Shown in pieces: positions 1 through 18,902 of a stretch of DNA of 64,000 nt. The stretch comes from Escherichia phage CMSTMSU. Under the pieces are notes generated by a model that was not told the origin of the DNA, searched no databases, and saw only the letters and a program-made list of their open reading frames with translations. The DNA lies in sequence record MH494197.1; one strand, given 5' to 3'. Each line of letters begins with the position of its first letter. The stretch's first letter is position 1. A program made the translations under genes and the position numbers.

Positions 1-356
1 ATTTGCACTGTGCATTAAATCACCTTTGTTTAAATTACAAAAGTACTGAAAACTGTTCTTAAAAGAATGTACTGATATTACAAAATCAAATTCCATCACT
101 CTTCCCTAGATTGAAATGATTACTAAAATTAGTTTCACCAGTTTTACACCATTTATCTATACATTCCCTGTGAATGCATTTAATTCTACGCTGGATTTCA
201 ACAATCTCTTCTAATGTACAGATGTACTTTTGTCAAATACTAATGACTCCTGAAATAGTGCAGCATCATCCATTAAGGTATAGTCCAGCATATCGGTTGC
301 TTTACAACTAAATCCAGTACCAAGATCCATTAAATAAAATTGTGAATTCCAGAACT

Positions 357-551
357 TTATAACCTTGCCCTTGTGTAGTTTAAATCACCTTTGTACAAAT
401 TACAACACGTAATCAACTCACCCGTGTACATCCATGTCCCTATACAAAATTCTTTATATTTTATTTCCATCTTAATCTCTACTGTAATTAATAAGGTAAA
501 CTCCAATATAAGGAGCACGTTGGGGCGGGGTATTTTTGTTTCAGGAAACAT
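357..551 (-). CDS. hypothetical small protein (weak)
   Basis: Track ORF on the dominant coding strand; 3' end overlaps a repeated promoter-like motif, so uncertain. Confidence 0.25.
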   Translation of the reverse strand: MFPETKIPRPNVLLILEFTLLITVEIKMEIKYKEFCIGTWMYTGELITCCNLYKGDLNYTRARL

Positions 552-869
552 GAACTGTACTCTGAAAACACATTTTAAAACTTTATATTAAACATATACC
601 TTAACATGTTTTTCAGCGAAAATTTTTTGACCCCAGCGGCCTGTGAAAATGAAACGTCTCTATTTATTCAGCCTAGAAAGCTTGATTTCTTCAATCCTTT
701 TCATCGCACAAAGCCTTCGACTCGTCCTCTCGTACATATTCAATACTCGCTGTAATGCATTATCTGTATTATCTGAACTGCAATCTGAACCAAATATGTA
801 TCCTTCAAAATCGAATCCATCATGAATTCAAAACCTTTCACACTAAAGCAATATACCACTTCCGGCTCT

Positions 870-1070
870 TCAAACGTAATCATAATTCCAATCTGTCCCA
901 TCTAACCTTCTAAGATATCTTGCGTAAATTATTTCGAAATATCTGTGCAACGAAATTACGGATTGCTCATAATCATCATTCCTGTACATTGTGCATGTAA
1001 GAAAATCATTTAAACCGTAATCTAAACTGCACTTGAACTTCTCCTTTGCAACATCTCTAAAATTATCCAT
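870..1070 (-). CDS. hypothetical protein
   Basis: Track ORF in co-directional minus-strand gene block. Confidence 0.4.
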   Translation of the reverse strand: MDNFRDVAKEKFKCSLDYGLNDFLTCTMYRNDDYEQSVISLHRYFEIIYARYLRRLDGTDWNYDYV

Positions 1071-1243
1071 AATATGTCCTCTGCACAGCGTAGGTGTACT
1101 GTGAACTCAGCACCGTTAATAGGTAATCTATATTGTAAGCACGATTTCCTCGTTGACTAGCACGACTAGAATAAAGAATATTATCCACATATGTATTGAA
1201 CTGTTCTTCAAATAACTCTTTCATCAGCACCCTTTAACAACCT

Positions 1244-1600
1244 TTAACAACCTTTAACAACTTTTGAAATGTAATCTTCTAATACACCAATGTTCTTTGT
1301 ATTCGTTCGAACTAAAAGATAACTTAAATTCTCGAACTCCTGAACATAATGCTTAACAGCGTACATGCATCGTAATTCAAAATCTGTATGAACCGTTTTG
1401 TACTGAAATAACATCTCTTCTGATGCATCTAAAAGCTCTGTAGCTTGTTCTGTACTGAACTTAAAGGGATTCTGTACTCCTGAACTAAAACACTTTTGTA
1501 CGTTCGTCTGGACACCCTGTGATAGATATAATCCTGTACTACCATCTTGTGTTGATATCGAATTGAAACCATTACTTGCAACCATTAAATCTGAACTCAA
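1244..1600 (-). CDS. hypothetical protein, FQ-motif family
   Basis: Contains SEEMLFQYKTVHTDFE, matching the ExxFQ-YSLVHD core shared by >15 ORFs. Confidence 0.5.
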   Translation of the reverse strand: MSSDLMVASNGFNSISTQDGSTGLYLSQGVQTNVQKCFSSGVQNPFKFSTEQATELLDASEEMLFQYKTVHTDFELRCMYAVKHYVQEFENLSYLLVRTNTKNIGVLEDYISKVVKGC

Positions 1601-1806
1601 TACAAATAATAATTTATCTTCCTTATGAATTAATAAATCTGACTTCAGGATTTTATTCCTGTACTGGTTATATCACCTATACTAAGATTGTCACTGAACT
1701 TCTCAGCGTTGTTCGCAATGCTCTGGACAAGATTTTTAATCTCTTAATGGCACTTCTGTCTTTTTCTAATGTATCTAATAAACTCATTGAACTCATTGTA
1801 CTTTCC

Positions 1807-2151
1807 TTACATATTTGTACCGAACAAAACGGAACTTTGAATACCATTAATCGACACTTCATGTACATATATATTTTGTCTGAATACCTGAAGCAATTGA
1901 ACTAAACTTTGTTGCATAATAATATGCATCGCTACATTATCAAAGGCCGTTTCGTATTGGAATCGTGCAGCTTCATCTTCTATTAAATTCGGAACTTGGA
2001 CTGGATTCTCAAAATTTGTCCTTGTACTGAACTGTACATCATTGTCCTGTACCTTAATACCATATGAATTATCATTGTTATCAACTACATCAAATTCAAT
2101 TAAACTACCATCTTTACTGACGTTCACTATATACACTGAAAATCTACTCAT
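1807..2151 (-). CDS. hypothetical protein, FQ-motif family
   Basis: EDEAARFQYETAFD motif. Confidence 0.5.
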   Translation of the reverse strand: MSRFSVYIVNVSKDGSLIEFDVVDNNDNSYGIKVQDNDVQFSTRTNFENPVQVPNLIEDEAARFQYETAFDNVAMHIIMQQSLVQLLQVFRQNIYVHEVSINGIQSSVLFGTNM

Positions 2152-2194
2152 AATCCTATTTCCTTTAAATCTTCCAAAAATGTTTCATAATCAC

Positions 2195-2464
2195 TTAAGG
2201 AAAAAAGATATCCGTATCGATGTTCGCATCTAATACATTATACAAATTCTGCATCTGTAACACATCAGGAGCATCAATCAATGATTGCTGGAAATAGGCA
2301 GCTTCATCTTCTAAAATATCCCTGAATGTTCTCTCTCGTACTCTGTGGTGTACTGAATTGAATATTGATTTCTCATCCTTAAGCATTGGTAGGTATCGAA
2401 TGTACATGTGTTCTCTTAGCTCAGGACTGATGGAACCCTGAACTGTAACACGTATTCGAAGCAC
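2195..2464 (-). CDS. hypothetical protein, FQ-motif family (possibly one frame-disrupted gene with 2416..2703)
   Basis: EDEAAYFQQSLIDAPD motif; 49-nt overlap with upstream ORF in another frame. Confidence 0.45.
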   Translation of the reverse strand: MLRIRVTVQGSISPELREHMYIRYLPMLKDEKSIFNSVHHRVRERTFRDILEDEAAYFQQSLIDAPDVLQMQNLYNVLDANIDTDIFFP

Positions 2465-2703
2465 ATAGCAACATCCTGAAGGTAATTGGCACTGTAATTA
2501 TTGCTGTAAACAATCTTATGACTTCTGAACTCATCATCATTTCTGAACCAATTGTCACCTACTTTGGTGTACTTATGACTAAGCAATCCACCCTCTAACG
2601 CTTTGATGATCTTCAAAATGTTGTGTGCAAATGCATATGATGTATTGTACTTGGCCTGATACATGTGTGCCTCATCTGCCTCATTTGGCGTTAAAATATT
2701 CAC
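2416..2703 (-). CDS. hypothetical protein
   Basis: Track ORF, minus-strand block. Confidence 0.4.
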   Translation of the reverse strand: MNILTPNEADEAHMYQAKYNTSYAFAHNILKIIKALEGGLLSHKYTKVGDNWFRNDDEFRSHKIVYSNNYSANYLQDVAMCFEYVLQFRVPSVLS

Positions 2704-2875
2704 TGAAATGATTATAACACAAAAGCACCACTATGTTAAGCACTCTGTTGTCAAAATCATCTTGTGATGCAGGATGCAAGGACGCATTGATGTTAAAATT
2801 CACTATATCATTGTGGAATTGGTATGTGAACAAATCAAACTTCGTATGCCTTTGTTTGATATCATAGGCGGTCAT
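2681..2875 (-). CDS. hypothetical protein
   Basis: Track ORF, abuts next ORF. Confidence 0.35.
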   Translation of the reverse strand: MTAYDIKQRHTKFDLFTYQFHNDIVNFNINASLHPASQDDFDNRVLNIVVLLCYNHFSEYFNAK

Positions 2876-2876
2876 A

Positions 2877-3080
2877 TTATATATTCAACCCTTTAACAAT
2901 GGAAATAAATTCTTTGTATACATTTTCAGGTAAAGCTTTACTACCATAAAGAATACTAAATTCAGGTAACATATCCGAAATCTCTTTCGCTAAATTTATT
3001 TCATCCCTGAACATTTGCACAGGCATGATATCCTGTACCAATGATAACTGAAAGAAAAATGATTCAATATCTTCATGCAC
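2877..3080 (-). CDS. hypothetical protein, FQ-motif family
   Basis: ESFFFQLSLVQD motif. Confidence 0.45.
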   Translation of the reverse strand: MHEDIESFFFQLSLVQDIMPVQMFRDEINLAKEISDMLPEFSILYGSKALPENVYKEFISIVKGLNI

Positions 3081-3236
3081 CTCTGAATTTAAATAAATCT
3101 CTTCTGGAAACTGGGCTGTACTGTAATAATAAAATACATCAATTCTTTTTCATTATTTTGTACAAGAGGTAAATTTCTTTCGTCTCTCTTATTAATATTT
3201 GTTTTCCATGACTCAATGTTATTCGGAATCCAAAAC

Positions 3237-3482
3237 TCATAAGGTGTCTTCTCCTGAAATATTATCCAGCTTCAATCCATAATATTCACCTTCTCCGTAC
3301 TTTTGCTTCAAAACAATACCTGTACTACTAATGTTTACAATGTACGTATCAACAATCCCTTCTGTGCTAAAAGGAATATTTAACTCTGAACCTTCAGGGT
3401 ACTTAGCATTGAATGCATCTAATGCTTTACTTAGCACTGGGATTGCACTGGTACTGTACTTCATTAATTGGTCTATGATCAT
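3237..3482 (-). CDS. hypothetical protein
   Basis: Track ORF; 4-nt overlap with the next gene suggests translational coupling. Confidence 0.45.
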   Translation of the reverse strand: MIIDQLMKYSTSAIPVLSKALDAFNAKYPEGSELNIPFSTEGIVDTYIVNISSTGIVLKQKYGEGEYYGLKLDNISGEDTL

Positions 3483-3853
3483 TTTAATTCTGTAATCACT
3501 GCATTTACTGCACTTGATGCAAATAAACTGATATTTGAACGATACATATCGTACACTGTACTTTCTTTCTTGTGCACAATGAAATCATAAAGATCAACGA
3601 ATGCAGGAATAATAATCTTGAATGATTTATTTGGGTACGTCCCAAAATCAACTGTACTCAATTTTGCAACGAGCATAACAACAAAGATTTCTTCTGGACT
3701 ATGCAATGTACTGTACTGAAAATATTCCTCAGCACTCATGGCACTTATTGCATTTATATCTTGTGTTTGTAATGTAATATTAAGATATTCAAAAATAGAA
3801 TAAAACTCTGATTTTGTTTGTATTTTGTATTTGTCAATTGGGGTATCTCTCAT
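3479..3853 (-). CDS. hypothetical protein, FQ-motif family
   Basis: SAEEYFQYSTLHSPEE motif; start/stop overlaps with neighbours. Confidence 0.5.
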   Translation of the reverse strand: MRDTPIDKYKIQTKSEFYSIFEYLNITLQTQDINAISAMSAEEYFQYSTLHSPEEIFVVMLVAKLSTVDFGTYPNKSFKIIIPAFVDLYDFIVHKKESTVYDMYRSNISLFASSAVNAVITELK

Positions 3854-4104
3854 GAACCATAAACGATCTTGTCCATAAAAGGAATGATTGAATTTGGGGA
3901 AGCCAGAAATACTTCTTCACTATCAATATCCTTTAACTCAATTTGCATACCGGATGAATTGGCAATAATTAATTCATTAAAAATATAATGAACCTTGTGT
4001 ACAATCTCTTGTACTGAATTGAAATCATCTGGTATTTTAAAATTTTCCATAGGTATCTCCTTAAAATGATTACACATTGTACCATGCATTTGTACTCGTG
4101 TCAA
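3850..4104 (-). CDS. hypothetical protein
   Basis: Track ORF with coupled stop/start overlap. Confidence 0.45.
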   Translation of the reverse strand: MTRVQMHGTMCNHFKEIPMENFKIPDDFNSVQEIVHKVHYIFNELIIANSSGMQIELKDIDSEEVFLASPNSIIPFMDKIVYGS

Positions 4105-4120
4105 ACAAAAAGCCCATATC

Positions 4121-4618
4121 TTACGATACAGGCATGTTTATTTGAATTTCATTGTACAAATCATCAATATATAGACATGAAAACGATAAACTTTCTTTAA
4201 CTATATTGTTGTGATAAAGCATTTTAAATGCAATATAGAAAAATAAATCAATATCATCATGTACTAAATTCTGCTGGAACCACCACTCTTCTGTTAAATC
4301 TTGTGCATTAAAATCATCAGGAACTACAATTGACGACATATCAGCATCTTCTTTGTACTCAAACCACATGTCGTCATTTGGATAACGTTCATGCTTCTCT
4401 GGGTAACAATTGCTGGGATTAAATGCTAAAATATAAAATGCCGTCGCAGAATGTTCTTTATTATAAAATGAATTATTCCACACCTGATACCTTTCACCAA
4501 CATCAAACTCTTTTGATACTGATGTTATTGCACATAATGTACGATATATTGTTTCTATTTTGTGAACAAATTTAAAGGCTGCATCTAAACTGAACTCTAA
4601 ATCAGACATGCGGTGCAT
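4121..4618 (-). CDS. hypothetical protein, FQ-motif family
   Basis: EEWWFQQNLVHDD motif. Confidence 0.5.
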   Translation of the reverse strand: MHRMSDLEFSLDAAFKFVHKIETIYRTLCAITSVSKEFDVGERYQVWNNSFYNKEHSATAFYILAFNPSNCYPEKHERYPNDDMWFEYKEDADMSSIVVPDDFNAQDLTEEWWFQQNLVHDDIDLFFYIAFKMLYHNNIVKESLSFSCLYIDDLYNEIQINMPVS

Positions 4619-4938
4619 AAAATTACCTCAACTAAAATAAGAACGGTATTGAATTCGAGGCAACCTTTGATACCTTGATTGTACATGTACTTTGCTACTA
4701 CATATTTCTGTACTAAATTATAATTATTAAATTCCTCAAAATTGTAATTTAGAATGAAATTTGTACTCAAAAATAACTTATGCATCTCTAATGCACTCTG
4801 ATAATATTTGTACAACTCACTGATATCAATACTTTGTAAATCACTTTGTTCATATGTATGATAAGGAATGGCGTCAATATCAATATTATTAAACCATTCT
4901 CTTAACTTATTAATATCAAATGTATTATTCAGCTTCAT
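4597..4938 (-). CDS. hypothetical protein
   Basis: Track ORF, minus-strand block. Confidence 0.45.
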   Translation of the reverse strand: MKLNNTFDINKLREWFNNIDIDAIPYHTYEQSDLQSIDISELYKYYQSALEMHKLFLSTNFILNYNFEEFNNYNLVQKYVVAKYMYNQGIKGCLEFNTVLILVEVILCTACLI

Positions 4939-5071
4939 AACTCAATACCTCCATTAAGCACTCATAAACACCATCAATCGCATAAGCACAAAACTGAAAT
5001 TAATTTTGTTATTCTTGTGTAATGGACTATCGTGTACTGTACTCAACATAACACTATAAAACAAAGAACGT

Positions 5072-5500
5072 TCATGTGTAAATAATGATTCCTGAAAAAT
5101 GCTTCCTCTGATTTAATTTTATTATATTCAATCGATTGATCATTAGAATAAAATGAATCTTGATTTGAATTGTACCATGTGTAATCCAAATCATTCTTTG
5201 ATATAACTGGTGTTGGATTAAACTGTAAAAGACTAATAACACTACGGGCATTTGGGGTATCAGGTGTATTGAATCGTTTATCAAAATGACTCGTGCACGC
5301 AATATGTGAATCAAAATCAGATGGTTTAAACCCCATGAATGCGTTAATGATTCTTGTATATGGTTTTTATTATGTGCTGCTTTCTGTACATTATATAAGG
5401 CTGCAACAATACAAGCTAACTTTTGTCCCATAAGGATTGCATTAGCGTAGGTGTACTGAATTTCATTGTACTCATTGCTTTCATTGTACTTCGAGATCAT
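5072..5500 (-). CDS. hypothetical protein (alternative frame 5043..5336 suggests frame disruption)
   Basis: Two overlapping same-strand ORFs in different frames. Confidence 0.35.
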   Translation of the reverse strand: MISKYNESNEYNEIQYTYANAILMGQKLACIVAALYNVQKAAHNKNHIQESLTHSWGLNHLILIHILRARVILINDSIHLIPQMPVVLLVFYSLIQHQLYQRMIWITHGTIQIKIHFILMINRLNIIKLNQRKHFSGIIIYT

Positions 5501-5690
5501 GGAACAGCCTCACTTTGCCTAACTCGTCATTGGATATTAATTCGTTAACAGCTTTTTGTATATTCTTTAATAATAGCACATCAAATCCTTTTGTGTCAAG
5601 CACACATTGCATTTGGAAGAATTCTTCTTCTGATAATGTATTAAAATCCACAAAATTGTCTAATATTACGTCATTATCCAAATGTGCCAT
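5481..5690 (-). CDS. hypothetical protein, FQ-motif family
   Basis: TLSEEEFFQMQCVLD; close paralog of 5818..6129. Confidence 0.55.
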   Translation of the reverse strand: MAHLDNDVILDNFVDFNTLSEEEFFQMQCVLDTKGFDVLLLKNIQKAVNELISNDELGKVRLFHDLEVQ

Positions 5691-5817
5691 GTGCCATGTA
5701 TTTCTTTCGAGCGTTTAATAAAATTCCATCCATCTGGATAATCGGGTTCTAATTCTACATATATCCCCGATACTGTATAAAGCATTTTATATATCATAAC
5801 TATTGTACTCATTGTTT

Positions 5818-6129
5818 TCACTGTACGTCGATGTCATAATACGCTCCTACCTCATAATCTTTCTTGCTTTGGAATTCATTAACGACTTTCTGTATATTTC
5901 TTAATGTTACCATGTCATGTCCGTACATGTCAACCACCAATTGCATTTGGAAAAATTCTTCTTCAGATAATGTATTAAAATCTATAAAATAATCCGTAAC
6001 AACCTGTGCGTCTAAATTTGCCATGTACCATTGATTGGTATCGACCTCTTTAACCAAATTCCATGCATCTGGATCGGATTCTAATTCTACATATATTAAT
6101 GTTAATGTATAAAGCATTTTATACTTCAT
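5818..6129 (-). CDS. hypothetical protein, FQ-motif family (starts MKYKMLY)
   Basis: TLSEEEFFQMQLVVD; part of a duplicated two-gene cassette. Confidence 0.55.
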   Translation of the reverse strand: MKYKMLYTLTLIYVELESDPDAWNLVKEVDTNQWYMANLDAQVVTDYFIDFNTLSEEEFFQMQLVVDMYGHDMVTLRNIQKVVNEFQSKKDYEVGAYYDIDVQ

Positions 6130-6463
6130 AACTATATCCTTGCATTAATAAATCATAAACGTTTGAAAGGTGCGGAATTTTGATATAAAATTTAAAACCC
6201 TTAATTAAAGGATTCGCGTACAATGAACTGAATAACTTTAGATAATGTATTTGACGAGGACTGTATAATAACGATTTCTGAAATAATTCAGCACTACAAT
6301 CTGAACTAATATCAATTAAATCAATTCGTGCTTCTACTTCATCATCTTGTTTCAAAACATAAAAGAAATAATCGTTTGTGTTGACCCACAAATACCCTTC
6401 ACTATTTTCGTATATAACAGGAGATGCTTGTTCTGGATTGCCTTGGCAAATGCTGCAAAACAA
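6119..6463 (-). CDS. hypothetical protein ending ...LLMQGYSYEV
   Basis: Paralog of 6700..7014 (identical C-terminus), SAELFQKSLLY motif. Confidence 0.5.
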   Translation of the reverse strand: MFCSICQGNPEQASPVIYENSEGYLWVNTNDYFFYVLKQDDEVEARIDLIDISSDCSAELFQKSLLYSPRQIHYLKLFSSLYANPLIKGFKFYIKIPHLSNVYDLLMQGYSYEV

Positions 6464-6699
6464 ACTTTTGCATTACTTTCATCTTTAAACATAAACGATA
6501 ATTTATCATATCTATCTTCTATGCGTAAATCACCTATAAAATGTACTTATGCATAGAATGATTATTCTTGAGCATAAGCATTACTGTACTAATCTTGTGT
6601 GCTAATAATTCTATCTCATTCATATATTATTACCTATTGATTGATACATCGTCATTGTCTTCTAATTCAACATAAATCATATCTTTTGTATAAAGCATT

Positions 6700-7014
6700 T
6701 TATACTTCATAACTATATCCTTGCATTAAAAGATCATAAGCAATATCAACTAATTCTAAACGAATGAAAAATTTTAAATTATCTTTCAATGGATTCAAAT
6801 GCATTGTACTAAACAACATAAGATACTTCATTTGATTTGTATTGTATATTAGGGATGTCTGGAATACTTCTGCTTCATTGTAAGGATCAATGAATTTTAT
6901 ACCTTCTTCACTGTAATCCGTTTTGGAATTCTGATATATAAAATAATCATCACCAGCATTGTACCACAAATAACCTTCAAAACTGGAATCAAATTCTGAA
7001 TTTTCATTTCGCAT
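6700..7014 (-). CDS. hypothetical protein ending ...LLMQGYSYEV
   Basis: Paralog of 6119..6463; followed by a truncated MKYKMLYT copy. Confidence 0.5.
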   Translation of the reverse strand: MRNENSEFDSSFEGYLWYNAGDDYFIYQNSKTDYSEEGIKFIDPYNEAEVFQTSLIYNTNQMKYLMLFSTMHLNPLKDNLKFFIRLELVDIAYDLLMQGYSYEV

Positions 7015-7259
7015 TAAAGGTGATACTGAAATTGGATTTGAACCAACTGTTGCACAAACCTCAATGAAAGCATCTTCATTTCCTTAACTTCTTCTTTGAT
7101 TTTATCATTGTACTGACCTGCAAAACCAGCTTTCACTTCCAAATATAAACTACTCCCAACTTTATTAATTCTTAAAAGGGAACTCTGTACTGTATTCGCA
7201 TTGTTCAGCACTAACGATATTGTGCAAATCTTATGTACCAATAACTCAATATCATTCAT
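7014..7259 (-). CDS. hypothetical protein
   Basis: Track ORF. Confidence 0.4.
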   Translation of the reverse strand: MNDIELLVHKICTISLVLNNANTVQSSLLRINKVGSSLYLEVKAGFAGQYNDKIKEEVKEMKMLSLRFVQQLVQIQFQYHL

Positions 7260-7270
7260 ATTGGTATTCC

Positions 7271-7486
7271 TTAATTTGGTGGATTTGGATGTAATAACTG
7301 ATCTATATAATTTAAATGTTCTATTGTAACTAATGAAAGATAATAATTGTAATTATCTATACCACCCTTTAAATGTATATTGTAATACATCTTGATACTT
7401 ACTAATAAAGAATCATTTAAATCATTTATTGCTTTTGTATTAACGGTTTTCATTAATGTTCTTCTCTTAAAAACGCTTAATGGCAC
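7271..7486 (-). CDS. hypothetical protein
   Basis: Track ORF. Confidence 0.4.
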   Translation of the reverse strand: MPLSVFKRRTLMKTVNTKAINDLNDSLLVSIKMYYNIHLKGGIDNYNYYLSLVTIEHLNYIDQLLHPNPPN

Positions 7487-7626
7487 AATCTAAATAAAAA
7501 TCATAATACATCATATCTCTATTCTTAACCCATACACAATAATCTGCATTAATATTTCTTAATAATATATTCATATTATAATCTTCACACCCTAATCGTG
7601 CCATTTAATAGGATACTCCGTTCCAT

Positions 7627-7839
7627 TTATTGTATAAGATATAATCCATCCGTAATGAATAGGATGATTTTTGTCTGAATCAGGAATAAAATATAAAGAT
7701 GTACTGGGTTATAACTGAATAAATCGTTGTTACCAATTGTAAAATGTGATAACTCAATCTTCCTTGTACCTGTACTTGGACGAAGAACATTCTTAACACC
7801 GAAGACTGTACCTTGATATTTCTCGGAAAATTCAAACAA
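7627..7839 (-). CDS. hypothetical protein
   Basis: Track ORF. Confidence 0.35.
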   Translation of the reverse strand: MFEFSEKYQGTVFGVKNVLRPSTGTRKIELSHFTIGNNDLFSYNPVHLYILFLIQTKIILFITDGLYLIQ

Positions 7840-7964
7840 TGCATCTGCAATTAAATCACGAAACTCCGCATGTATGGTTTCAAAAAATCTATATTACACG
7901 ATGTTTTAATATCCTTGAACTCCTTATATAAAGAGCTTCTTGTATTCAAAAGAAATATTACTTT

Positions 7965-8165
7965 TTAAGATCCTGAACTATTTCTGGATTCATATTCATT
8001 TATCTCATTCTGTAACTTAAGCATCAAAATTTGCATATTAATTTTTTGTACAAGGTGATTGAGAAATTTCTGTACTGTATCTTCTTGTTCTTTTGACCCA
8101 AGATAAAATAACATATTAAATTCCGATAACCTCAGAGCAAAATCTTCCTCTCCCCTCGTAAACAA
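7965..8165 (-). CDS. hypothetical protein, LGT-motif family
   Basis: LFYLGSKEQEDTVQKF resembles the LGTNYQE core. Confidence 0.45.
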   Translation of the reverse strand: MFTRGEEDFALRLSEFNMLFYLGSKEQEDTVQKFLNHLVQKINMQILMLKLQNEINEYESRNSSGS

Positions 8166-8199
8166 AAATCCCTGTACTTTGAAGCGTACAAATATTGGT

Positions 8200-8412
8200 T
8201 TACCTTTTTATACCTTTGGGTCTGCATTGTATCTCCTTTTTCAAACACCTTATTAGATTATCAACGTATTGGTCCTGTACTATTGTCCCTAGATAAAATA
8301 ATACATCGAACTCTGATAATTTTATATTGAAAGGATCTACATATACATCTTTAATAAACTCTTTGTACTTCAAAATATATGCATTAGGTAAATTCTTATA
8401 TATCGATTTCAA
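8200..8412 (-). CDS. hypothetical protein, LGT-motif family
   Basis: LFYLGTIVQDQYVDNLI. Confidence 0.45.
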   Translation of the reverse strand: MKSIYKNLPNAYILKYKEFIKDVYVDPFNIKLSEFDVLFYLGTIVQDQYVDNLIRCLKKEIQCRPKGIKR

Positions 8413-8626
8413 TGATCCTCCCTGACATACCTTGTATTAGCTTATCATACATATCTAGCATTACTTTTTGAATACTAATTAATACTGGCATCGTGCAAAT
8501 ATCAATGTCGTATATTAAGCTGTACTGGAATAATTCCTCTTCCTGCATTTGTACTAAATTAGGTAAAAGATAATTGTCTGCCTCTTCATCCGGTACTTGA
8601 ATGCATAACGCCATCCTTTTGTACAA
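8396..8626 (-). CDS. hypothetical protein, FQ-motif family
   Basis: EEELFQYSLIYD. Confidence 0.5.
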   Translation of the reverse strand: MYKRMALCIQVPDEEADNYLLPNLVQMQEEELFQYSLIYDIDICTMPVLISIQKVMLDMYDKLIQGMSGRIIEIDI

Positions 8627-8712
8627 AAGAATGTCAATATCACCTAACTCTTCTGCATAACCAAAAATACATATACTGATGTTTTTGCTATATTAAATTT
8701 CATATTCTTCTC

Positions 8713-9063
8713 TTATATGTGGAATTCACATACGTGTTGAACAAAATTCTTTGGAAGATGACAATGTGTAATCATCTGCTTTTGTACTTCCTTCATATCT
8801 TCGAATGTAAATCCTAAAGAATCATCATGTACTAACAAGTACTGAAACTCTTCTTCTTCAGAGATAGAACATAAATTCGGTACTGAAATTGTGTTTGTTT
8901 TTCTTGCACCTAATTTCCAATGAAAAGAATTATTGCATTTTCTGTACTCAAATATCTTCAACCCAGAACCTGTATTAAAATCAGCTACTACAATGTAACA
9001 TGAATTCTTACGTACAATACAATTGAACTTACGCATTATCTCCACCTCTCTCCGTCTGTACAA
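8713..9063 (-). CDS. hypothetical protein, FQ-motif family
   Basis: SISEEEEFQYLLVHDD. Confidence 0.5.
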   Translation of the reverse strand: MYRRREVEIMRKFNCIVRKNSCYIVVADFNTGSGLKIFEYRKCNNSFHWKLGARKTNTISVPNLCSISEEEEFQYLLVHDDSLGFTFEDMKEVQKQMITHCHLPKNFVQHVCEFHI

Positions 9064-9340
9064 GAGTACTGGTACGTTGTAGTTAGGGTAGGGACCATGT
9101 TTGTAATGGGCATATTATTAACAATAACGGTAACAGGCATAAGAATCGTCTCTTCTCTACTCTGTCCTGTCCTTGTGCAATTCATCTTTTGCATTTCATC
9201 GGACTCCATGAAATACAATACAAATGGTGCAATCCCAAGAACAATACACAAGACGATAAGGAAATTTAAAAATTCAACATAATTTTCTACCCTATGATTA
9301 ACGTACAGGTACTATATCAGTAATGAAAAGTACTGTCAAG

Positions 9341-9715
9341 CTAGTATTGCACTGTTCTAATGAAAGTACCTTTACTCATGGATTTAAGCTTATGAACCTC
9401 TTCCTGCATACCCTTAATTAACCCTAAAGGTATAGGTAAATCATGTACTAAGCTGTACTGAAAGTATTCTTCTTCAGATAAAGTACTAACATCTGGAATG
9501 CCAATTTTAGTTAGATAATCTTGATGTGTTGACCAATAAATTATATCTTCAGTACTATTGTACTCCCCATATACTGAACAATATTGATGAATATCTTTCC
9601 TGTACCCTTGAGCAATAAAGAACTTATCTACTGCATTACCAGCATTAATAGAATTCACTTCGATTGTCACAGTACTTGAGCTTGTTTTTCCTTTACTATG
9701 CATATTAATCCCCAA
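9341..9715 (-). CDS. hypothetical protein, FQ-motif family
   Basis: STLSEEEYFQYSLVHD. Confidence 0.5.
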   Translation of the reverse strand: MGINMHSKGKTSSSTVTIEVNSINAGNAVDKFFIAQGYRKDIHQYCSVYGEYNSTEDIIYWSTHQDYLTKIGIPDVSTLSEEEYFQYSLVHDLPIPLGLIKGMQEEVHKLKSMSKGTFIRTVQY

Positions 9716-9891
9716 ATTAGATATCGAACACTATCAGCTTGATAGTTAGTTCCTACTGTGTGTTTTAATATTAACTCATCTTTCAGTACTGAACATTCTG
9801 CATTAGATATAGGAAGAGAATTAATTCTTTGAATTTCTGGTCGCAAAATACCGCGAAGCTTGCGGTAATCTTCGTATGATAATATTTTCAT
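9667..9891 (-). CDS. hypothetical protein
   Basis: Track ORF. Confidence 0.4.
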   Translation of the reverse strand: MKILSYEDYRKLRGILRPEIQRINSLPISNAECSVLKDELILKHTVGTNYQADSVRYLIWGLICIVKEKQAQVL

Positions 9892-10238
9892 TGTTTAGTA
9901 CTCAATAATGTGTTCTTCATAATCACCATTAGGCTCTGTTTAGCTTCTTTCATTAGTACTATCATTTTATGTACTAATGGCATAGGAAATTCTAAATCCC
10001 ATACTAATGATTCTTGAAAGTATTCCTCTGGTGATAAAGTACTTAAATCTTTAATATCAACGTGCTTGTATATTTTATTTTCGTAATTAACAAATGATAT
10101 ATATAAATCATTAATATAAGAATCATACGTAATTGTGAATGGCTTACCCTTGTAGTCCATTACATCTCTACATAGACTACTTTTGATATATATATGTTCA
10201 TAGGATTTATATACCTTGAGTTGTATATTAGTTTTCAT
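9888..10238 (-). CDS. hypothetical protein, FQ-motif family
   Basis: STLSPEEYFQESLVWD. Confidence 0.5.
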   Translation of the reverse strand: MKTNIQLKVYKSYEHIYIKSSLCRDVMDYKGKPFTITYDSYINDLYISFVNYENKIYKHVDIKDLSTLSPEEYFQESLVWDLEFPMPLVHKMIVLMKEAKQSLMVIMKNTLLSTKQ

Positions 10239-10503
10239 ATTTCTCTTTATTAGATTGTGTGGTTTTATAGTGAATGAAATCTATTAATGTAATCAAGTAC
10301 AACGTCAAATAGTACTCTTGTTGATCTGTACCTAATGATACAAAGAACTTGTGCTCATAGATTAAAACCTGTTTCTCTTCAAATGGACATTTAATCCTCT
10401 GTATAGGCTTAAGTAAATGATAGTACTTATTAAATCTATGATACATTTCTAGTTCTGTCAGTACTTTCATATTAAACACGTACTCCATTAGCTGTAGCAT
10501 CAC
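10228..10503 (-). CDS. hypothetical protein, LGT-motif family
   Basis: LGTDQQEYYLTLYL. Confidence 0.45.
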   Translation of the reverse strand: MMLQLMEYVFNMKVLTELEMYHRFNKYYHLLKPIQRIKCPFEEKQVLIYEHKFFVSLGTDQQEYYLTLYLITLIDFIHYKTTQSNKEKYEN

Positions 10504-10693
10504 GTAAAGCTGTCAAATACTTCTGTACTGCTTGCTCTTGCTTATTTGTACCTAAAAGTATATACATCCATAATTCACTGTAATGTACATCTTCTGTATA
10601 AGGGTTGTTGTAACTTTTTGATAATATAGCATCAAATTCAGATGCATGAACCCTTGTGAACTTAAGAATATCTTGTTGTGTTATGATTCTCAT
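10472..10693 (-). CDS. hypothetical protein, LGT-motif family
   Basis: LLGTNKQEQAVQKYL. Confidence 0.45.
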   Translation of the reverse strand: MRIITQQDILKFTRVHASEFDAILSKSYNNPYTEDVHYSELWMYILLGTNKQEQAVQKYLTALRDATANGVRV

Positions 10694-10899
10694 ATTTTTC
10701 CTGTACTATCTGTATAAGAATACCTATGTGTGAATTAACAGTTCTCTCTTGATGCTGTGTTCCTAAGAGTGTCAGTACTATCATATCTGAACGCAAAAGA
10801 TTTTTTCAAGTTCACTTATATCAGTTCTTGAATCAAGTGCCATATATTTGTGATTATTCTTCCTGAATAGTGCCAAGTACTCTTGATTTGATATTTCCT

Positions 10900-11430
10900 T
10901 CATAGTTTATCCCTGATGCCATTTAAAAGTGCTCTAATATGTTCCTGTACGAATTTGTACTGACTGTCTGTTCCTAGAGTGAGTAGCAATCTTAAATCTG
11001 AACTTTTGATGTGATATTCTAAATCATTATTTGATTCTTGCATCAGTTTCTTAAAGGATGAGAAGTTTGCAGCCATTAGTTCAATGTATTCTGCTGTTCC
11101 TAGTGGTTTGTGTATTGGCTGTTTGTGCATTTTAATTTTATTACCCTTTGAGTGTATTAATGTAATTATACACATTGGCTTTTGATAGTTAGTTCCCAGT
11201 GTAGCTTGAACATAGATTTCATTTAACTTAATAATTTTATCAGTATCTGGTAGTTTTGATGTGTTAATGGCAAATAACTTCAAAACAGTCCATTTAAGAT
11301 TGTTAGGTATTCTTCGTCGGTAATGATTCGCATTTGCATTGGATAAACCTTTTAGTTCTTTGATGTAATCATTAATATTGCATTCTTGATAGTTAGTCCC
11401 TAGGGTAGCTTGAACATAGATTTCACTCAT
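10900..11430 (-). CDS. hypothetical protein with three LGT modules (fusion or read-through of tandem paralogs)
   Basis: ATLGTNYQ occurs twice plus LTLGTDSQYKFVQEHI. Confidence 0.4.
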   Translation of the reverse strand: MSEIYVQATLGTNYQECNINDYIKELKGLSNANANHYRRRIPNNLKWTVLKLFAINTSKLPDTDKIIKLNEIYVQATLGTNYQKPMCIITLIHSKGNKIKMHKQPIHKPLGTAEYIELMAANFSSFKKLMQESNNDLEYHIKSSDLRLLLTLGTDSQYKFVQEHIRALLNGIRDKL

Positions 11431-11533
11431 TAGAATATTTTTTCTTCATCAGGTAAATCTGTGGTCTTTGCTATATACAATTTTAGAATTAAACTACTTA
11501 ATAGTTCGTGGTATTCACTTGGTGAAAGGATTT

Positions 11534-11749
11534 TCATTTGCATGTTCTCAGTACAGATTCTTTAAGTTCATCGATGTAGTCCTCAACGAATTGCTCTTGG
11601 AAGTTAGTTCCAACATATAAAAGAACTCTTAAATCTGCTCTAAGTAACTCTTTTTCATCCTCATCTATATCAGACAATGTTATGTTTAAGAATTTACTTG
11701 TATTAAAGATTAACAATTCTGTTTGTTCACTGTGGTTTAAAATTTTCAT
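11534..11749 (-). CDS. hypothetical protein, LGT-motif family
   Basis: LLYVGTNFQEQFVEDYI. Confidence 0.5.
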   Translation of the reverse strand: MKILNHSEQTELLIFNTSKFLNITLSDIDEDEKELLRADLRVLLYVGTNFQEQFVEDYIDELKESVLRTCK

Positions 11750-11957
11750 AATCTCTTTTTGCTTTCCTCGACAGTAGGTACAAATACGATTCTTCGTATT
11801 GTGCTTGGAAGTTTGTGTTTAAGAGTCGAAACAACTTCTGTTCTTCTAGAACGAGTTGCTTATCTTCATAACAACGGTAGCGTATCAACTTTTTGTATTC
11901 GATGTTGATTACATCCATTACTATAAGCCCATGTTCATCATCTGTCAAGTGCTTCAT
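11727..11957 (-). CDS. hypothetical protein, LGT-motif family (variant)
   Basis: LLNTNFQAQYEESYL. Confidence 0.45.
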   Translation of the reverse strand: MKHLTDDEHGLIVMDVINIEYKKLIRYRCYEDKQLVLEEQKLFRLLNTNFQAQYEESYLYLLSRKAKRDYENFKPQ

Positions 11958-12162
11958 GCTTTTTTCTTTTCCTGATGTGTTTAGTTAAAAGGTATATTAG
12001 TTTTCTGATGTATTCTTCCTGATAGTTTGTTCCTAGGAGTGCAAGAAGTTTTGCTTCAACTAAAGCTAATTGACGTTCTTCGAATGTGTGTTCCAGTATG
12101 TACTTTGGGTTTGATTTTTAGATATTGCACTATTAGTTTTCATTACAATCTTATGATATTCA

Positions 12163-12420
12163 TTAACTGTTAGGATTTTTAAATTCTTGAGCATGTACCT
12201 TTTCCTTTATAGAGAATTTAAGATATCGAAGCATACTTTCAATGTAATACTCTTGTCTGTCAGTTCCAAGAAAGTACAGGAGTTGAATGTATAAAACTTC
12301 TGCACTCCTTTCGGCATGTGACTTGTTTGTGTCGTTTGGAAGTTGATTTGTAAGTTTTCTGGATTTAATTAATCGTTCTTTTAACTCATCGTCTGTTAAG
12401 TATATCATTTCATTTTGCAT
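12163..12420 (-). CDS. hypothetical protein, LGT-motif family
   Basis: FLGTDRQEYYIESML; N-terminus MQNEMIYLTDDEL shared with 12457..12645. Confidence 0.5.
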   Translation of the reverse strand: MQNEMIYLTDDELKERLIKSRKLTNQLPNDTNKSHAERSAEVLYIQLLYFLGTDRQEYYIESMLRYLKFSIKEKVHAQEFKNPNS

Positions 12421-12456
12421 TTACTTTTTCCATAATAGTAATTTTGAGATATTTAA

Positions 12457-12645
12457 TTATACGTTCAATGTGATACTTTGCCTATCAGTTCCAAGAAGGT
12501 ATGGTAATGACTGGAATAAAACTTCTGCACTCCTTTCTGCTGGGGTTTGGTTTGGGTCATTTGGAAGTTTATTTGTAAGTCTTTTGGATTTATCTAGTCT
12601 TTCTGTTAACTCATCATGTGTTAAGTATATCATTTCATTTTGCAT
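12457..12645 (-). CDS. hypothetical protein, LGT-motif family (C-terminus probably frame-disrupted)
   Basis: Near-identical N-terminus to 12163..12420, ends prematurely after LGTDRQ. Confidence 0.45.
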   Translation of the reverse strand: MQNEMIYLTHDELTERLDKSKRLTNKLPNDPNQTPAERSAEVLFQSLPYLLGTDRQSITLNV

Positions 12646-12881
12646 TTAATGTTCCTTACGTAAATTGTCTGGATTAAAAGTGAAATCCATTTTTCTACAT
12701 ATTGGTTTTGATACTGTGTGCCTAAAAGACTCTGCATTTTAAACTCTTCTTCGAGTGCATATCTCGTTTCTATAGTAAAGCTTAAATGACCATATTCTTT
12801 ATCGTATCTTCTCAGTGCTTCCCCAATTCTATCAAATCTTTCTGCTATTCTGATGTTATTAATTTTATTCATCGCATTCAT
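12630..12881 (-). CDS. hypothetical protein, LGT-motif family
   Basis: LLGTQYQNQYVEKWI. Confidence 0.5.
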   Translation of the reverse strand: MNAMNKINNIRIAERFDRIGEALRRYDKEYGHLSFTIETRYALEEEFKMQSLLGTQYQNQYVEKWISLLIQTIYVRNIKCKMK

Positions 12882-12966
12882 CGATCAGTACACCTTAGTG
12901 GACGGGTCATTTGATAAAAGTACAGCTTACCTTTGATTTCCAATAGTAACTCAGCAATTAATCGAT

Positions 12967-13155
12967 TTACTTCTGGCTCTTGATAGTTTGTCCTAACAAT
13001 GCACCCATCTTTAACTCACGCATCATAATCATTTTCTTACTGTGTTGAATTTCTGGGTTGTGATAGATTGTATTACGTTTGTGTGTAATTTTTGTCATAC
13101 GCTCGGTATATTCATCTTTACTTAAATTGATCATTTGCATGTTCATCAACCTCAC
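12967..13155 (-). CDS. hypothetical protein, LGT-motif family (variant)
   Basis: N-terminus MQMINLSK shared with 13563..13811. Confidence 0.45.
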   Translation of the reverse strand: MRLMNMQMINLSKDEYTERMTKITHKRNTIYHNPEIQHSKKMIMMRELKMGALLGQTIKSQK

Positions 13156-13562
13156 ATTTATTTTCGATACAAATCATTAGTTCTCTAAGATAGTTTTTAT
13201 CTTACCTTCCTGATGGTTCGTCCCGAAAGTTGCATAACTCTGCTTCTATCATTTTGATTCTTCTGGTGTCAGGTTTCAATCTTTTGTTATTGAAGATTTG
13301 AATCCTTATATCCCTTGATGCATTTAAACGTTTTGATATTCATGGAAAGATAAATTAATCATTTACTTTGTATCTCTCTCTTGAGGGCATCAATTAACAA
13401 CAGTACAGCATTCTCTTGATAGTTTGTTCCTAAGACTGAAAGCATCTTAATCTCATTTACTACGATCAACTTCTTTGAGCGTTCAATAATGTTACTATTA
13501 TAAACGGCGTTACGTGCTGGATAAGTTTTGCAAGACGATCATAATATTCATCTTTACTTAAA

Positions 13563-13811
13563 TTAATCATTTGCATTTCTCGTACATTTACTTAGTTTAC
13601 TCCCAATGTATTTCTTAAGTGTAATTATATATTCCTCTACATAATACTCCTGATAGTTAGTTCCTAAGAATGCACATAGCTTTGTCTCACGCTTCATAAT
13701 CATCTTATTTTCGTGTTTGTTTACTTCACCGAAATGGATTTCATTAAGTTTAGGTAAGATTTTTGCTTGGCGTTCTTTATATTCAGATTTACTTAAATTA
13801 ATCATTTGCAT
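13563..13811 (-). CDS. hypothetical protein, LGT-motif family
   Basis: FLGTNYQEYYVEEYI. Confidence 0.5.
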   Translation of the reverse strand: MQMINLSKSEYKERQAKILPKLNEIHFGEVNKHENKMIMKRETKLCAFLGTNYQEYYVEEYIITLKKYIGSKLSKCTRNAND

Positions 13812-14014
13812 TTACTTTGGATCTCCTTGACTAATGCATCAACCCACATGTCTATATACATTTGTTGATAGTTTGTCCCTATGAGTGCCCTGCATAGAGT
13901 TCAGCTATCATTGCATGTTTTAGGTTGGCAGGATGCTCTTATCAGATTGAATCTTTACTCTTCTGTTGGCACATGTTTTCAGGAGTCTGATGTATTCAAA
14001 GCCTTGTAATTTTC

Positions 14015-14230
14015 TCATTCTTTAGATATCACCTTGTTACGTAAGGCACTTAACAATACGTCAGTGTAGATGTTTTGATAGTTTGTTCCTACGAAAGCAC
14101 CCAACTTCATTTCAGCTATTATAACACATTTGTCCTCTTGTGCAATAGACTTGTCTAAAGAAATACTAACAACTTTCCTTCTTATAGCTTGTAATCTCCA
14201 ATGATACTGATACTCATTTAGGGTTATCAT
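14015..14230 (-). CDS. hypothetical protein, LGT-motif family
   Basis: FVGTNYQNIYTDVLL. Confidence 0.5.
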   Translation of the reverse strand: MITLNEYQYHWRLQAIRRKVVSISLDKSIAQEDKCVIIAEMKLGAFVGTNYQNIYTDVLLSALRNKVISKE

Positions 14231-14465
14231 TCTCTCGCCTCCATATCTCGGTTCTAATGTGTTGACATTGTGCTTCGATGAACATATCTATTGATTTGGC
14301 AATTGCGTTTTTATCTGTGCCAGTCATCAGTACAAGCATCTCGGCCTCACAGTGAAGTAAACGCATGATATCATAGGGTAATATTCCAGATACCGTGTCA
14401 TAGTGTTTCTGTGCCAGTGTCTGTAATAGTTTACAATACATTTTGTGATTTAGTCTGTGTCGCAT
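14214..14465 (-). CDS. hypothetical protein, LGT-motif family (variant)
   Basis: LMTGTDKNAIAKSIDMFIE. Confidence 0.45.
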   Translation of the reverse strand: MRHRLNHKMYCKLLQTLAQKHYDTVSGILPYDIMRLLHCEAEMLVLMTGTDKNAIAKSIDMFIEAQCQHIRTEIWRRENDNPK

Positions 14466-15587
14466 TGTTTATTCCATTCTTTTTGGCCCTCTGGGTTTTA
14501 TATTGGATTTGGTTTCTTAATGCTGATAAGTATCGTTGAATGAACAGATCTTGATAGTTTGTTCCAATGAATTTCATAAGATAAAGTTCACCGTTGATAA
14601 CATCCACTTCAGGTGCACCATATAAGGCATTGTTTTTCTAAGGGCATGGATTAAAGAGAATAGGGCAGTTTGATACTCAACTCCTGATAAAGTCTTCATG
14701 TTTTGTGAGCCAATAATCATCTAGTTTATCCTGTATAACATTCATTAATTGTTCGACATATTCTGTGCAAAACTTATCTTGATATTGAGTCCCATAAAGT
14801 ACAGCAACCATAGCTCATTAACTTTAGCTCGCATTTGGTTCCATGTAAGGCTGGGGTCATCGTAGACTATCCTTGCTATAGGGTTAGTTTACGGACTATA
14901 GTTTCATATTCATCTAGTGTTAAGTGTTTCATTTACATTTGTCCCTTATTAGATCAGTGAGGGCAACTATGTGTGCAACAACATACTCTTCCTGAAAGTT
15001 CGTCCCAGTACAGCCATCATGCGTATATCGGTGGTGTTTATCCTGTGTTCCCTTACACATAAACCTTCTGTGTGAGGAAGTGTAAAATATTTGTTTATTG
15101 CAGCAATGATAATTTTATTCTTCTCGGAATTACTTAAATGTTTCATAGTTTGCTCTTAATGTATTTCTGGAGTGCAATTATATACTCATTCAAGAAGTGC
15201 TCTGATAATCTGTGCCGAGGAATGCACCCAATAGTATATCATTTTCCAATACTAATGCTAAGTTCAAATCATCAGTCTCTTCATATACTATGAGAATTTC
15301 AAGTTGTCTGGCAGCGACGCGTTCGGTATATTGATTTGAGTTTGCAATGATATTCATAGTTTACTCTTTATGTAATTCTTGAGTGCAATTAAGTATTCCC
15401 CTACATAATACTCCTGAAAGTCTGTATCCAAAAATGCACCCATAAGTAAATCTTTTTCTAATACCCTTGATAAGTTAAGGTCTGCATTTGAAAGGTATAT
15501 AAGTAAGATTTCACCCTGTGCGGAATTGAAACGTTTCTTATATTCTTCTGGTGTTAAAAAATCATAGTTTACTCTTAATATCTTCTA

Positions 15588-15770
15588 TTAAAAATGAATC
15601 CAATCGTCAACATACTCTTCCTGATGGTTTGTGTTCAGTACAGCCAACATGCGGATCTCTGCTCTTGCAACTTGGATTTCAGTTTTAGAAAGGTCTTTGC
15701 TGATATCAAACATTAAGTCCATGTATTTCAAGATAAGACCGAATGATTGGGTTCGTGTTATAGTTTTCAT
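15588..15770 (-). CDS. hypothetical protein, LGT-motif family
   Basis: VLNTNHQEEYVDDWI. Confidence 0.45.
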   Translation of the reverse strand: MKTITRTQSFGLILKYMDLMFDISKDLSKTEIQVARAEIRMLAVLNTNHQEEYVDDWIHF

Positions 15771-15967
15771 TGTTTCCTCGTGGACAATATTTCATTTTTC
15801 AATGCATCCATATATTGAATCACCCATCTTCCCTGATAGCTTGTTCCCAATGTAATCAAAAGGTATAACTCAATTCGTTCTAAGTTTGTGTCTGTGTTAT
15901 AAATCTTTACCATGTTTTTACGTAACAGTTCTTGATAATCTTCTTTATTTAAAATACGCATTTTCAT
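15767..15967 (-). CDS. hypothetical protein, LGT-motif family
   Basis: TLGTSYQGRWVIQYM; 4-nt overlaps with neighbours. Confidence 0.5.
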   Translation of the reverse strand: MKMRILNKEDYQELLRKNMVKIYNTDTNLERIELYLLITLGTSYQGRWVIQYMDALKNEILSTRKQ

Positions 15968-16161
15968 AGTCTACCTTTTATGTCCCTTCGTAATTCTTGT
16001 AAGTATAGTTCGATATACTTTTCTTGATAGTTAGTTCCTATGAAAAGTTTCATAACCAATTCACGCTTATATGCAATACCACGGATATGTGACATATGTA
16101 GGATATATGCCATGTTGGATATGAGTGTGTGGTTGTGCTCTTCTTCAGTTAAAATACGCAT
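15964..16161 (-). CDS. hypothetical protein, LGT-motif family
   Basis: FIGTNYQEKYIELYL. Confidence 0.5.
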   Translation of the reverse strand: MRILTEEEHNHTLISNMAYILHMSHIRGIAYKRELVMKLFIGTNYQEKYIELYLQELRRDIKGRL

Positions 16162-16205
16162 AGGGACTCCATTAAAAATAATATCAATCCCATAATATAC
16201 GATTC

Positions 16206-16380
16206 ATATAAAAGTCAATAACATTTTATTCGTAATACCCTTTATCGAAGTCGCTAAGGTTACCCGCCCTTTAGCCCCTACGCATTTTGCCATAGTCCAA
16301 TCCTTTTATTCATAAAAGTCAAGGGATTACCTATGCATTTTTTAACGCTGAAGTTTAAAAATGCCTTGACTTTTTATGAT
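16206..16380. repeat. TCATAAAAGTCAA repeats (two direct, one inverted) in ORF-free region
   Basis: Copies at about 16206 and 16312 (direct) and 16365 (inverted TTGACTTTTTATGA). Confidence 0.45.
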
Positions 16381-18716: not shown

Positions 18717-18902
18717 TCACGTTTGCACATAGTGAAACCATCGTTTACGTGTTTTGCATTTTCGGGCGACATCACCGATAGCGGCACATACGGCACTAAT
18801 AACAGTATTCCGCAAAGTACTGGTATCATTGGCGGTCATAGTAGTTTGCAGTACTACGTTGTCGTATACGTGTGCATTGATAGTGATTTCGATAGTGTTC
18901 AT
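18717..18902 (-). CDS. hypothetical protein
   Basis: Track ORF immediately downstream of a promoter cassette; overlapping frame 18635..18829 suggests a frameshift. Confidence 0.4.
   Translation of the reverse strand: MNTIEITINAHVYDNVVLQTTMTANDTSTLRNTVISAVCAAIGDVARKCKTRKRWFHYVQT

Follow-up and report, generated by a model that had tools for sequence, protein, structure and literature searches.

The window analysed here, a 64,000-nucleotide stretch of the Escherichia phage CMSTMSU genome (MH494197.1), carries a set of small open reading frames (ORFs) that share an acidic EExFQ core and that we refer to as the FQ family. A pattern search, together with the ORF list, placed 16 genes with this core at 86-10238, where a preliminary description of this DNA had put them, all on the minus strand, with a 17th member cut at 1-96 and a distant copy at 61480. 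Comparison of their sequences shows that these ORFs constitute one homologous multigene family that is restricted to this phage lineage.

The first 12 kb of the window matched Asteriusvirus-group Escherichia jumbo phages, with WPEC5 as the best match (97.2% identity over the full length); 35 records matched in all, 31 from Escherichia phages and four from Salmonella phages. The window is also colinear, in reverse, with positions 37,693 down to 175 of phage fEgEco12. The ends of fEgEco12 have been verified by restriction analysis, and its direct terminal repeat measures 20,993 bp (PMC13070987) and occupies positions 1-20,993. Because the window is colinear with a genome whose repeat and ends are known, we could assign four regions by alignment: a left unique region (window ~1-16,260), one copy of the terminal repeat (~16,260-37,340), the equivalent of the left physical end of fEgEco12 (~37,340, close to a GC-skew switch near 38000), and a right-hand unique end with RCC1-type genes on the other strand. 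The direct terminal repeat of ~21 kb is present in the window as a single collapsed copy. All genes from g01 to g185 of fEgEco12 are oriented inward from the left end, where the repeat is followed directly by about 30 tightly packed genes of a second small-protein family (LGTNYQ) and then by the FQ array, a same-strand train of tightly packed tandem genes that starts ~6 kb inward of the left terminal repeat. Intergenic gaps within the repeat of fEgEco12 are very roughly 50-250 bp, and the arrays downstream of it overlap tightly.

In a comparison of window positions 1-12000 with WPEC5, nearly all of the insertions and deletions (indels) were losses of one base from the window, frequently within homopolymers (A, T, C or G). 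Likewise, alignment with fEgEco12 revealed 24 one-base deletions versus 2 insertions at 1-8217, and 110 versus 8 at 14917-27480. This excess, measured at window 1-37164 against two independent relatives, has the appearance of long-read sequencing errors left uncorrected. Genes that are in two to four ORF pieces in the window are annotated as long and intact in WPEC5, fEgEco12, 121Q and phAPEC6. As a result of the single-base deletions, ten of the 16 members in the block and the distant copy are broken by frameshifts, and the ORF map is unreliable anywhere in the window. The intact orthologues of the array proteins are 103-202 amino acids long and that of the distant copy 216; the range of 65-165 amino acids first reported for the family thus consists in part of frameshift artefacts, with intact orthologues at 103-216. 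The practical lesson is that ORF calls made from the window's own sequence cannot be trusted.

We therefore give each member, all on the minus strand, with its intact counterpart where the window copy is broken. The gene at 1-96 retains only its first 32 codons; by tblastn and translation, its orthologue is a WPEC5 protein of 118 amino acids, and the window ends before the motif of the gene is reached. Adjoining it, a member of ~125 amino acids at 86-470 (DDAALFQESLVFD) is split over three frames and has intact homologues, P0021 and P0013. The member at 1244-1796 (EEMLFQYKTVHTD), whose orthologue has 184 amino acids, also lies in three frames. At 1807-2151 there is an intact gene for 114 amino acids (EDEAARFQYETAFD), the weakest member of the family. 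The frameshifted copy at 2195-2664 (EDEAAYFQQSLID; orthologue of 172 amino acids) has lost its C-terminal 16 residues to a deletion near 2201, while that at 2877-3482 (DIESFFFQLSLVQD; orthologue of 202 amino acids) is disrupted by two compensating indels, at ~3146 and ~3250. A further frameshifted copy, at 3479-4050 (SAEEYFQYSTLHS), corresponds to an orthologue of 191 amino acids, and 4121-4618 encodes an intact protein of 165 (TEEWWFQQNLVHD). At 4928-5500 the window copy is in four pieces; its orthologue of 189 amino acids contains SEEAFFQESLF, and the motif ORF in the window reads SEEAFFRNHYLH because a frameshift falls at the motif.

The remaining members of the block follow the same pattern. 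The copy at 5481-5812 (LSEEEFFQMQCVLD; orthologue of 113 amino acids) is in two frames, that at 5818-6129 is intact with 103 amino acids (LSEEEFFQMQLVVD), and those at 6119-6623 (CSAELFQKSLLYS; orthologue of 168) and 6700-7259 (NEAEVFQTSLIYN; orthologue of 186) lie in three and two frames, respectively. The member at 8396-8704 (QEEELFQYSLIYD) has a frameshifted N-terminus; its orthologue of 103 amino acids provided the first of two structural models described below. Intact proteins of 107 and 120 amino acids are encoded at 8713-9036 (SEEEEFQYLLVHD) and 9341-9703, the latter being the subject of the second model; its motif, LSEEEYFQYSLVHD, is encoded at 9440-9481 and comprises residues 75-88. 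Finally, a member of ~114 amino acids at 9888-10238 (SPEEYFQESLVWD) has a C-terminus unlike those of its relatives because of an indel near 9936.

The distant copy lies at 61480-62128 on the minus strand (LSEEQLFQYSLIHD), between RCC1-type genes of the opposite strand. It had been reported as an ORF at 61480-61857 inside the RCC1 region; we confirmed this position and found that the gene in fact extends to 62128, being split into 61480-61857 and 61904-62128. Its intact orthologue is g581 of fEgEco12, a protein of 216 amino acids with a basic N-terminal extension, which lies at 331.6-332.3 kb, ~21 kb inward from the right terminal repeat. The extension (window 61904-62128) comprises ~95 lysine- and arginine-rich residues and does not occur in members of the array; its basic character hints at a different localisation or at contact with nucleic acid. 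The RCC1-type genes that flank the distant copy (window ~38000-63000, plus strand) probably have their counterparts in the 'DNA condensation protein' genes of phAPEC6, a correspondence drawn from product names and gene numbering. Seven of these phAPEC6 proteins (gp003, 005, 007, 009, 549, 551 and others) have been found in the virion proteome, unlike the FQ family.

We asked how much of the resemblance among members survives control for their acidic composition. In a leave-one-out procedure, we withheld each member along with its close paralogues, built a profile from the sequences that remained, and compared the score of the withheld member with those of 1000 shuffles of it. We found that 16 of 18 members scored above the best of their 1000 composition-matched shuffles, with E-values of 4e-13 to 0.011 (database size 1000). 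The margin was narrow for the member at 1807-2151 (12.0 bits versus 10.5 for its best shuffle). The two failures were the member at 2877-3482, which scored below its best shuffle and is included in the iterated profile, and one member outside the window. Applied to fEgEco12, that iterated profile settled on 44 ORFs and let in no shuffled or reversed decoys. The similarity extends beyond the motif: profiles align over most of the protein length, with the FQ pair at a median of 51 residues from the C-terminus, such that homology covers a domain of ~100 amino acids. Outside the core the paralogues are only ~20% identical, and F and Q are invariant in a 52-sequence alignment. The family relationship thus holds after the acidic bias is taken into account, and we regard the existence of a true homologous family as practically certain. 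The image of one motif set in variable scaffolds gives way to that of a single divergent domain of ~100 amino acids, rather than a motif shared by unrelated proteins.

The way in which these genes have evolved also bears on this point. At the invariant residues, synonymous codons vary (TTT in 27 and TTC in 17 cases for F; CAG in 27 and CAA in 17 for Q), and the codons used at F, Q and E follow the general usage of the genes. Because synonymous codons vary, the motif is conserved as protein and not as a DNA element. For most copies, a one-to-one orthologue exists in a genome that is ~80% identical at the nucleotide level, and every such pair shows purifying selection: among 37 reciprocal-best pairs between fEgEco12 and 121Q, the ratio of nonsynonymous to synonymous substitution rates (dN/dS) had a median of 0.25 and was below 0.5 in every pair. 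Pooled by region, dN/dS was lowest in the motif itself (0.16), compared with 0.29 in the preceding region and 0.26 in the following one, and we found no positive selection at the whole-gene or regional level in these pairs. From the one-to-one orthologues and the low dN/dS, we conclude that the copies are old, individually retained and constrained, and do not stem from recent amplification.

It could be argued that the similarity reflects a DNA-level repeat or recombination signal, or chance acidic low complexity, rather than protein homology. Recombinants do exist, with crossovers in the motif shared by adjacent close paralogues. Protein P0011 of a related phage is a clean chimera of two adjacent paralogues with its crossover in the shared LFQESLVFDKKY stretch, and P0001 (242 amino acids) is a head-to-tail fusion of the same two genes, whose equivalents lie at window 1-470; from these two cases it follows that recombination between neighbouring close copies happens at the motif. 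However, neither a repeat nor low complexity accounts for the free synonymous variation at conserved residues, a dN/dS well below 1, the rejection of shuffled and reversed decoys by the profiles, or homology over ~100 residues. As the main explanation, this alternative is refuted by the leave-one-out results, the iterated profile and the codon variation, and its probability is next to nil.

The family is considerably larger than the window suggests. Its extent had been put at 10 kb; the 16 members there stand, but they are just the proximal end of an array that in fEgEco12 holds at least 44 members over ~29 kb (27.2-56.3 kb). These members sum to 20,073 nucleotides, or 5.7% of the non-redundant genome. 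By profile, 121Q has 41 members, and the final 33 kb of the record of Erwinia phage Hallingskeid contain at least 25; in Hallingskeid as in fEgEco12, length varies along the array, with shorter members nearer one end and longer ones nearer the opposite end. When 1.84 billion representative proteins were searched exhaustively with the profile, 75 clusters were returned, all of 89-216 amino acids; the 47 that were inspected all have the same core, with the consensus roughly P-D-L-S-x-L-S-E-E-E-x-F-Q-x-S-L-V-W-D ... I-Q. A search of viral contigs for related loci, confirmed with a single query sequence, returned only 121Q itself. In addition, several genes for 115-282 amino acids between members at fEgEco12 41859-59819 have degenerate cores at the expected position (for example EEQCFQLSC, EENEFQNNT, EAALMQLST and SIEFFQYEC), which score weakly (hhalign probability 2-6%). 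These may be further members, in which case the family could exceed 50 copies.

To describe the domain that these proteins share, we modelled two members with AlphaFold2. The model of the 103-amino-acid member, made from 20 sequences, had a mean predicted local distance difference test score (pLDDT) of 66, and that of the 120-amino-acid member, made from 52 sequences, had a pLDDT of 75 and a predicted template modelling score of 0.66. In each, a beta meander (five-stranded in the better model, four-stranded in the other) is combined with two helices and a short strand at the C-terminus. In both, the motif forms a helix. It corresponds to helix 1 (EEEYFQYSLV, residues 77-86 of the 120-amino-acid model), which is the most confident segment there (pLDDT 93-95); over both models the motif scores 91-95, against means of 66-75. 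Just ahead of the acidic run stands mostly S, T, D or N, the residues that classically cap a helix at its N-terminus, and acidic side chains in the first turn interact favourably with the helix dipole. Helix 2 contains another, almost invariant Q. As a second conserved feature, absent from the preliminary description, many of the short members (~100-125 amino acids) end exactly in V/I-x-V/I-(Q/E)-Y, which is the final beta strand in the model.

Together, these models predict that each protein is a single alpha+beta domain in which a sequence-variable, five-stranded meander sheet is followed by two helices and a C-terminal strand. The S-E-E-E-x-F-Q-x-S-L-V-x-D core is predicted to be the first helix, capped by S, T, D or N and with an acidic first turn. 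By helical periodicity, rather than by measurement on coordinates, F, L and V (or I) should face the domain core; on the same basis, we propose a contact in which the invariant Q probably pairs with the nearly invariant Q of helix 2. The motif would thus be mainly the conserved structural core of the domain. The preliminary description had left two options, an interaction motif or one that nucleates the fold. The second is the better supported, given a short alpha helix with the highest pLDDT in both models, N-cap-like variation before it and the lowest dN/dS within it, and we consider a structural helix the probable identity of the motif.

The first option is best put as an adaptor model, in which an exposed acidic-aromatic helix docks all paralogues to one partner (for example a host protease, RNA polymerase or a phage hub protein) and the variable sheet picks the cargo, as in F-box and SOCS-box proteins. 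Such a model would explain why F and Q never vary and three acidic residues persist across paralogues that are ~20% identical, and why purifying selection is strongest at the motif; moreover, a position with a purely structural role would not usually hold an invariant polar Q. However, AlphaFold2 predicts this helix as an internal part of the fold and more confidently than any other segment, the variation just ahead of the acidic run is that of a helix N-cap, F, L and V share one face by periodicity, like a core-facing stripe, and no partner is known. We therefore find a docking role unlikely, though not negligible.

A second functional reading of the core, as a processing site for a glutamine-specific protease of the 3C/TEV type or for a head-maturation protease, is disfavoured. 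The TEV-type cleavage consensus is E-x-x-Y-x-Q followed by G or S, and members with EEEYFQ fit the E-x-x-Y-x-Q part by eye. Cleavage would need a small residue (G, S or A) after Q, but the residue there is usually bulky or charged, being mostly Y, E, Q, L, M, N, H, K or T, with G in two of the 44 fEgEco12 members. The site also lies within a confidently predicted helix, and the proteins are absent from the virion proteome of phAPEC6. Proteolytic processing at the core is accordingly a very remote prospect.

Comparison with databases yielded no name for the domain. None of nine members scanned against Pfam-A scored above a gathering threshold (the best reached 18.7 bits versus 22.9, with an unrelated N-terminal region), four members scanned against NCBIfam gave nothing near a cut-off, and the SUKH and SMI1-KNR4 models of Pfam gave no match at E up to 1. 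With the 52-sequence profile, a sequence-profile search of the PDB returned no matches at E up to 10. Foldseek against the PDB gave no match reaching E 0.001 and no convincing fold match; among known systems, sheet-plus-helix platform folds (the platform of major histocompatibility complex class I-like proteins, the p32/Mam33 acidic proteins and the polo-box) are among the closest. Against the viral models of BFVD, Foldseek found significant matches only to family-like proteins of phages of the clade (slurp01, PBECO4 and Klebsiella phage RaK2). The ten members scanned against PHROGs matched profiles that are all labelled unknown function, with E-values from 4e-07 down to 1e-107 (phrog_30243, 28680, 31297, 30978, 34516, 19795, 13866, 34359, 33987, 12674 and 22855), and the window proteins also cross-matched one another's profiles weakly. 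PHROGs thus splits the family into at least ten unrelated-looking groups and does not record the domain and motif that unite them. In the papers on these phages that we consulted, there was no description of the FQ family.

The LGTNYQ genes adjoin and partly interleave with the array. They occupy window 10228-~16200, with interleaved copies at 7965-8412 and 9667-9891, and encode proteins of 65-87 amino acids with an 'LGTNYQE' core and an N-terminal 'LSxxEY'; ~30 copies are present in fEgEco12, with a median dN/dS of 0.33. We considered this family as a relative of the FQ proteins on account of shared 'LSxEEY'-like strings and ruled it out (hhalign probability 0.5%, one aligned column).

The promoters of the array and its setting bear indirectly on how it is expressed. 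On the coding strand, near-consensus sigma-70 matches (at least 11 of 12 positions) numbered 5, versus 0.8 +/- 0.9 in shuffles, and the other strand had none; the overall promoter count was not above chance, and the enrichment is limited to these near-consensus coding-strand matches. At window 4133-4112 (minus strand), a terminator-like hairpin is followed directly by a near-consensus sigma-70 promoter at 4104-4076 (TTGACA-17-TACAAT, with an upstream TG). The hairpin and promoter fall in the gap 4076-4133, which has a family gene on either side; this arrangement suggests that one transcription unit ends and another begins within the array. A non-family gene inside the array (9036-9316, minus strand), which encodes 81 amino acids with a hydrophobic N-terminal segment (LNFLIVLCIVLGIAPFVLYF), is preceded by a strong promoter-like site at 9339-9311.

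These phages use the host RNA polymerase together with a sigma factor of their own (PMC11895373). RNA-seq of PA5oct, a distant relative, showed early transcription of most genes in its terminal repeat, and PA5oct depends on the polymerase of its host (PMC7318152). For CBB, a comparable ORF block beside the terminal repeat was suspected by the authors of the genome to comprise the early host-takeover genes (PMC5259590). The FQ family does not have a T5-like pre-early location: at 27.2-56.3 kb of fEgEco12, it is not within the direct terminal repeat (1-20,993). Among the 62 proteins of the phAPEC6 virion proteome, none is numbered gp4xx, and the part of the array that matches window 1-12000 corresponds to gp444-gp466. 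The proteins are acidic, with a median isoelectric point (pI) of 4.8 and a median net charge of -8.5, with extremes to -30. Together, the orientation of the genes, their promoters, the early genes of relatives, the absence from that virion proteome and the acidity favour early, intracellular, non-structural proteins. That they are early and absent from virions seems to us rather likely, if somewhat less so than the structural role of the helix.

Acidity in an early-like region might instead point to DNA mimicry, in which the proteins, like Ocr or ArdA, would present an acidic nucleic-acid-like surface and soak up host DNA-binding defence enzymes. The low pI and high negative charge would suit such decoys, as would the context; however, searches with Pfam, PDB profiles and Foldseek revealed no resemblance in sequence or fold to Ocr, ArdA or any other known mimic, two of the 44 fEgEco12 members are basic (pI 8.6 and 9.1), and more than 40 individually conserved copies are hard to fit to one generic function. 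We judge DNA mimicry improbable.

As our best explanation, we propose instead that the FQ proteins are a homologous family with a structural motif helix whose paralogues are early, diversified binding proteins. They would be made early by the host RNA polymerase and would stay in the cell without entering virions. The paralogues may be small binding proteins that have diversified for host takeover or counter-defence, each using its variable sheet surface to neutralise or redirect a target of its own among host factors and defence proteins. By analogy with other early blocks, a role as host-directed binders is a tentative proposal, with the chances somewhat against it, and the explanation as a whole is about evenly poised between right and wrong. 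Several points weigh against it. The sheet is modelled with only moderate confidence (pLDDT 58-71), and the burial of motif residues is a prediction from periodicity; absence from one virion proteome leaves room for packaged proteins of low abundance; and the proposed function is assigned from context and analogy. The analogy with the pre-early genes of T5 and the repeat genes of PA5oct is indirect because the family lies outside the terminal repeat. Furthermore, many anti-defence proteins would be expected to evolve in an arms race, and a gene-wide dN/dS of ~0.25 gives no hint of this.

A bolder version of this proposal would have more than 40 single-domain binders, built on a fold without a recognisable relative, each disable a different host immunity or housekeeping protein while the FQ helix couples all of them to one shared effector, such as a protease. 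We regard this as a long shot. If true, such an effector-coupled repertoire would be a modular counter-defence system with a logic comparable to that of F-box families.

Whatever their role, the FQ proteins are a genuine, large and so far unnamed paralogous family, and ~20 kb of these coliphages is given to one family without a curated name or an explaining structure. More than 40 'hypothetical proteins' per genome thereby become one tractable question and a target for expression, toxicity and interaction screens. Phages of this kind are being developed for therapy, and the array is a place in which new host-takeover or anti-defence proteins might be found.

Among known systems, the immunity-protein arrays of the SUKH and SMI1-KNR4 type resemble the FQ array as tandem arrays of small alpha+beta proteins, and in nothing more. 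The multigene families of large viruses, such as the ankyrin or BTB families of poxviruses and giant viruses and the gene 'accordions' of poxviruses, likewise have tens of tandem small-domain paralogues close to one end of the genome, in which the core is conserved and the surfaces vary. The FQ family differs from them in that its proteins contain no known repeat or domain type, and its array is not a recent amplification: most copies have one-to-one orthologues between fEgEco12 and 121Q under purifying selection, and the array is present in an Erwinia phage. The early blocks of other phages (the T5 pre-early genes, the terminal-redundancy module of SPO1, the repeat genes of PA5oct, and CBB_390-546, which its authors suspected to be early) are also long same-strand runs of small genes of unknown function at or next to a long direct terminal repeat. 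The FQ array lies just outside the repeat and not within it; and those blocks are composed mostly of unrelated genes, whereas here one domain family, in more than 40 copies, fills ~20 kb.

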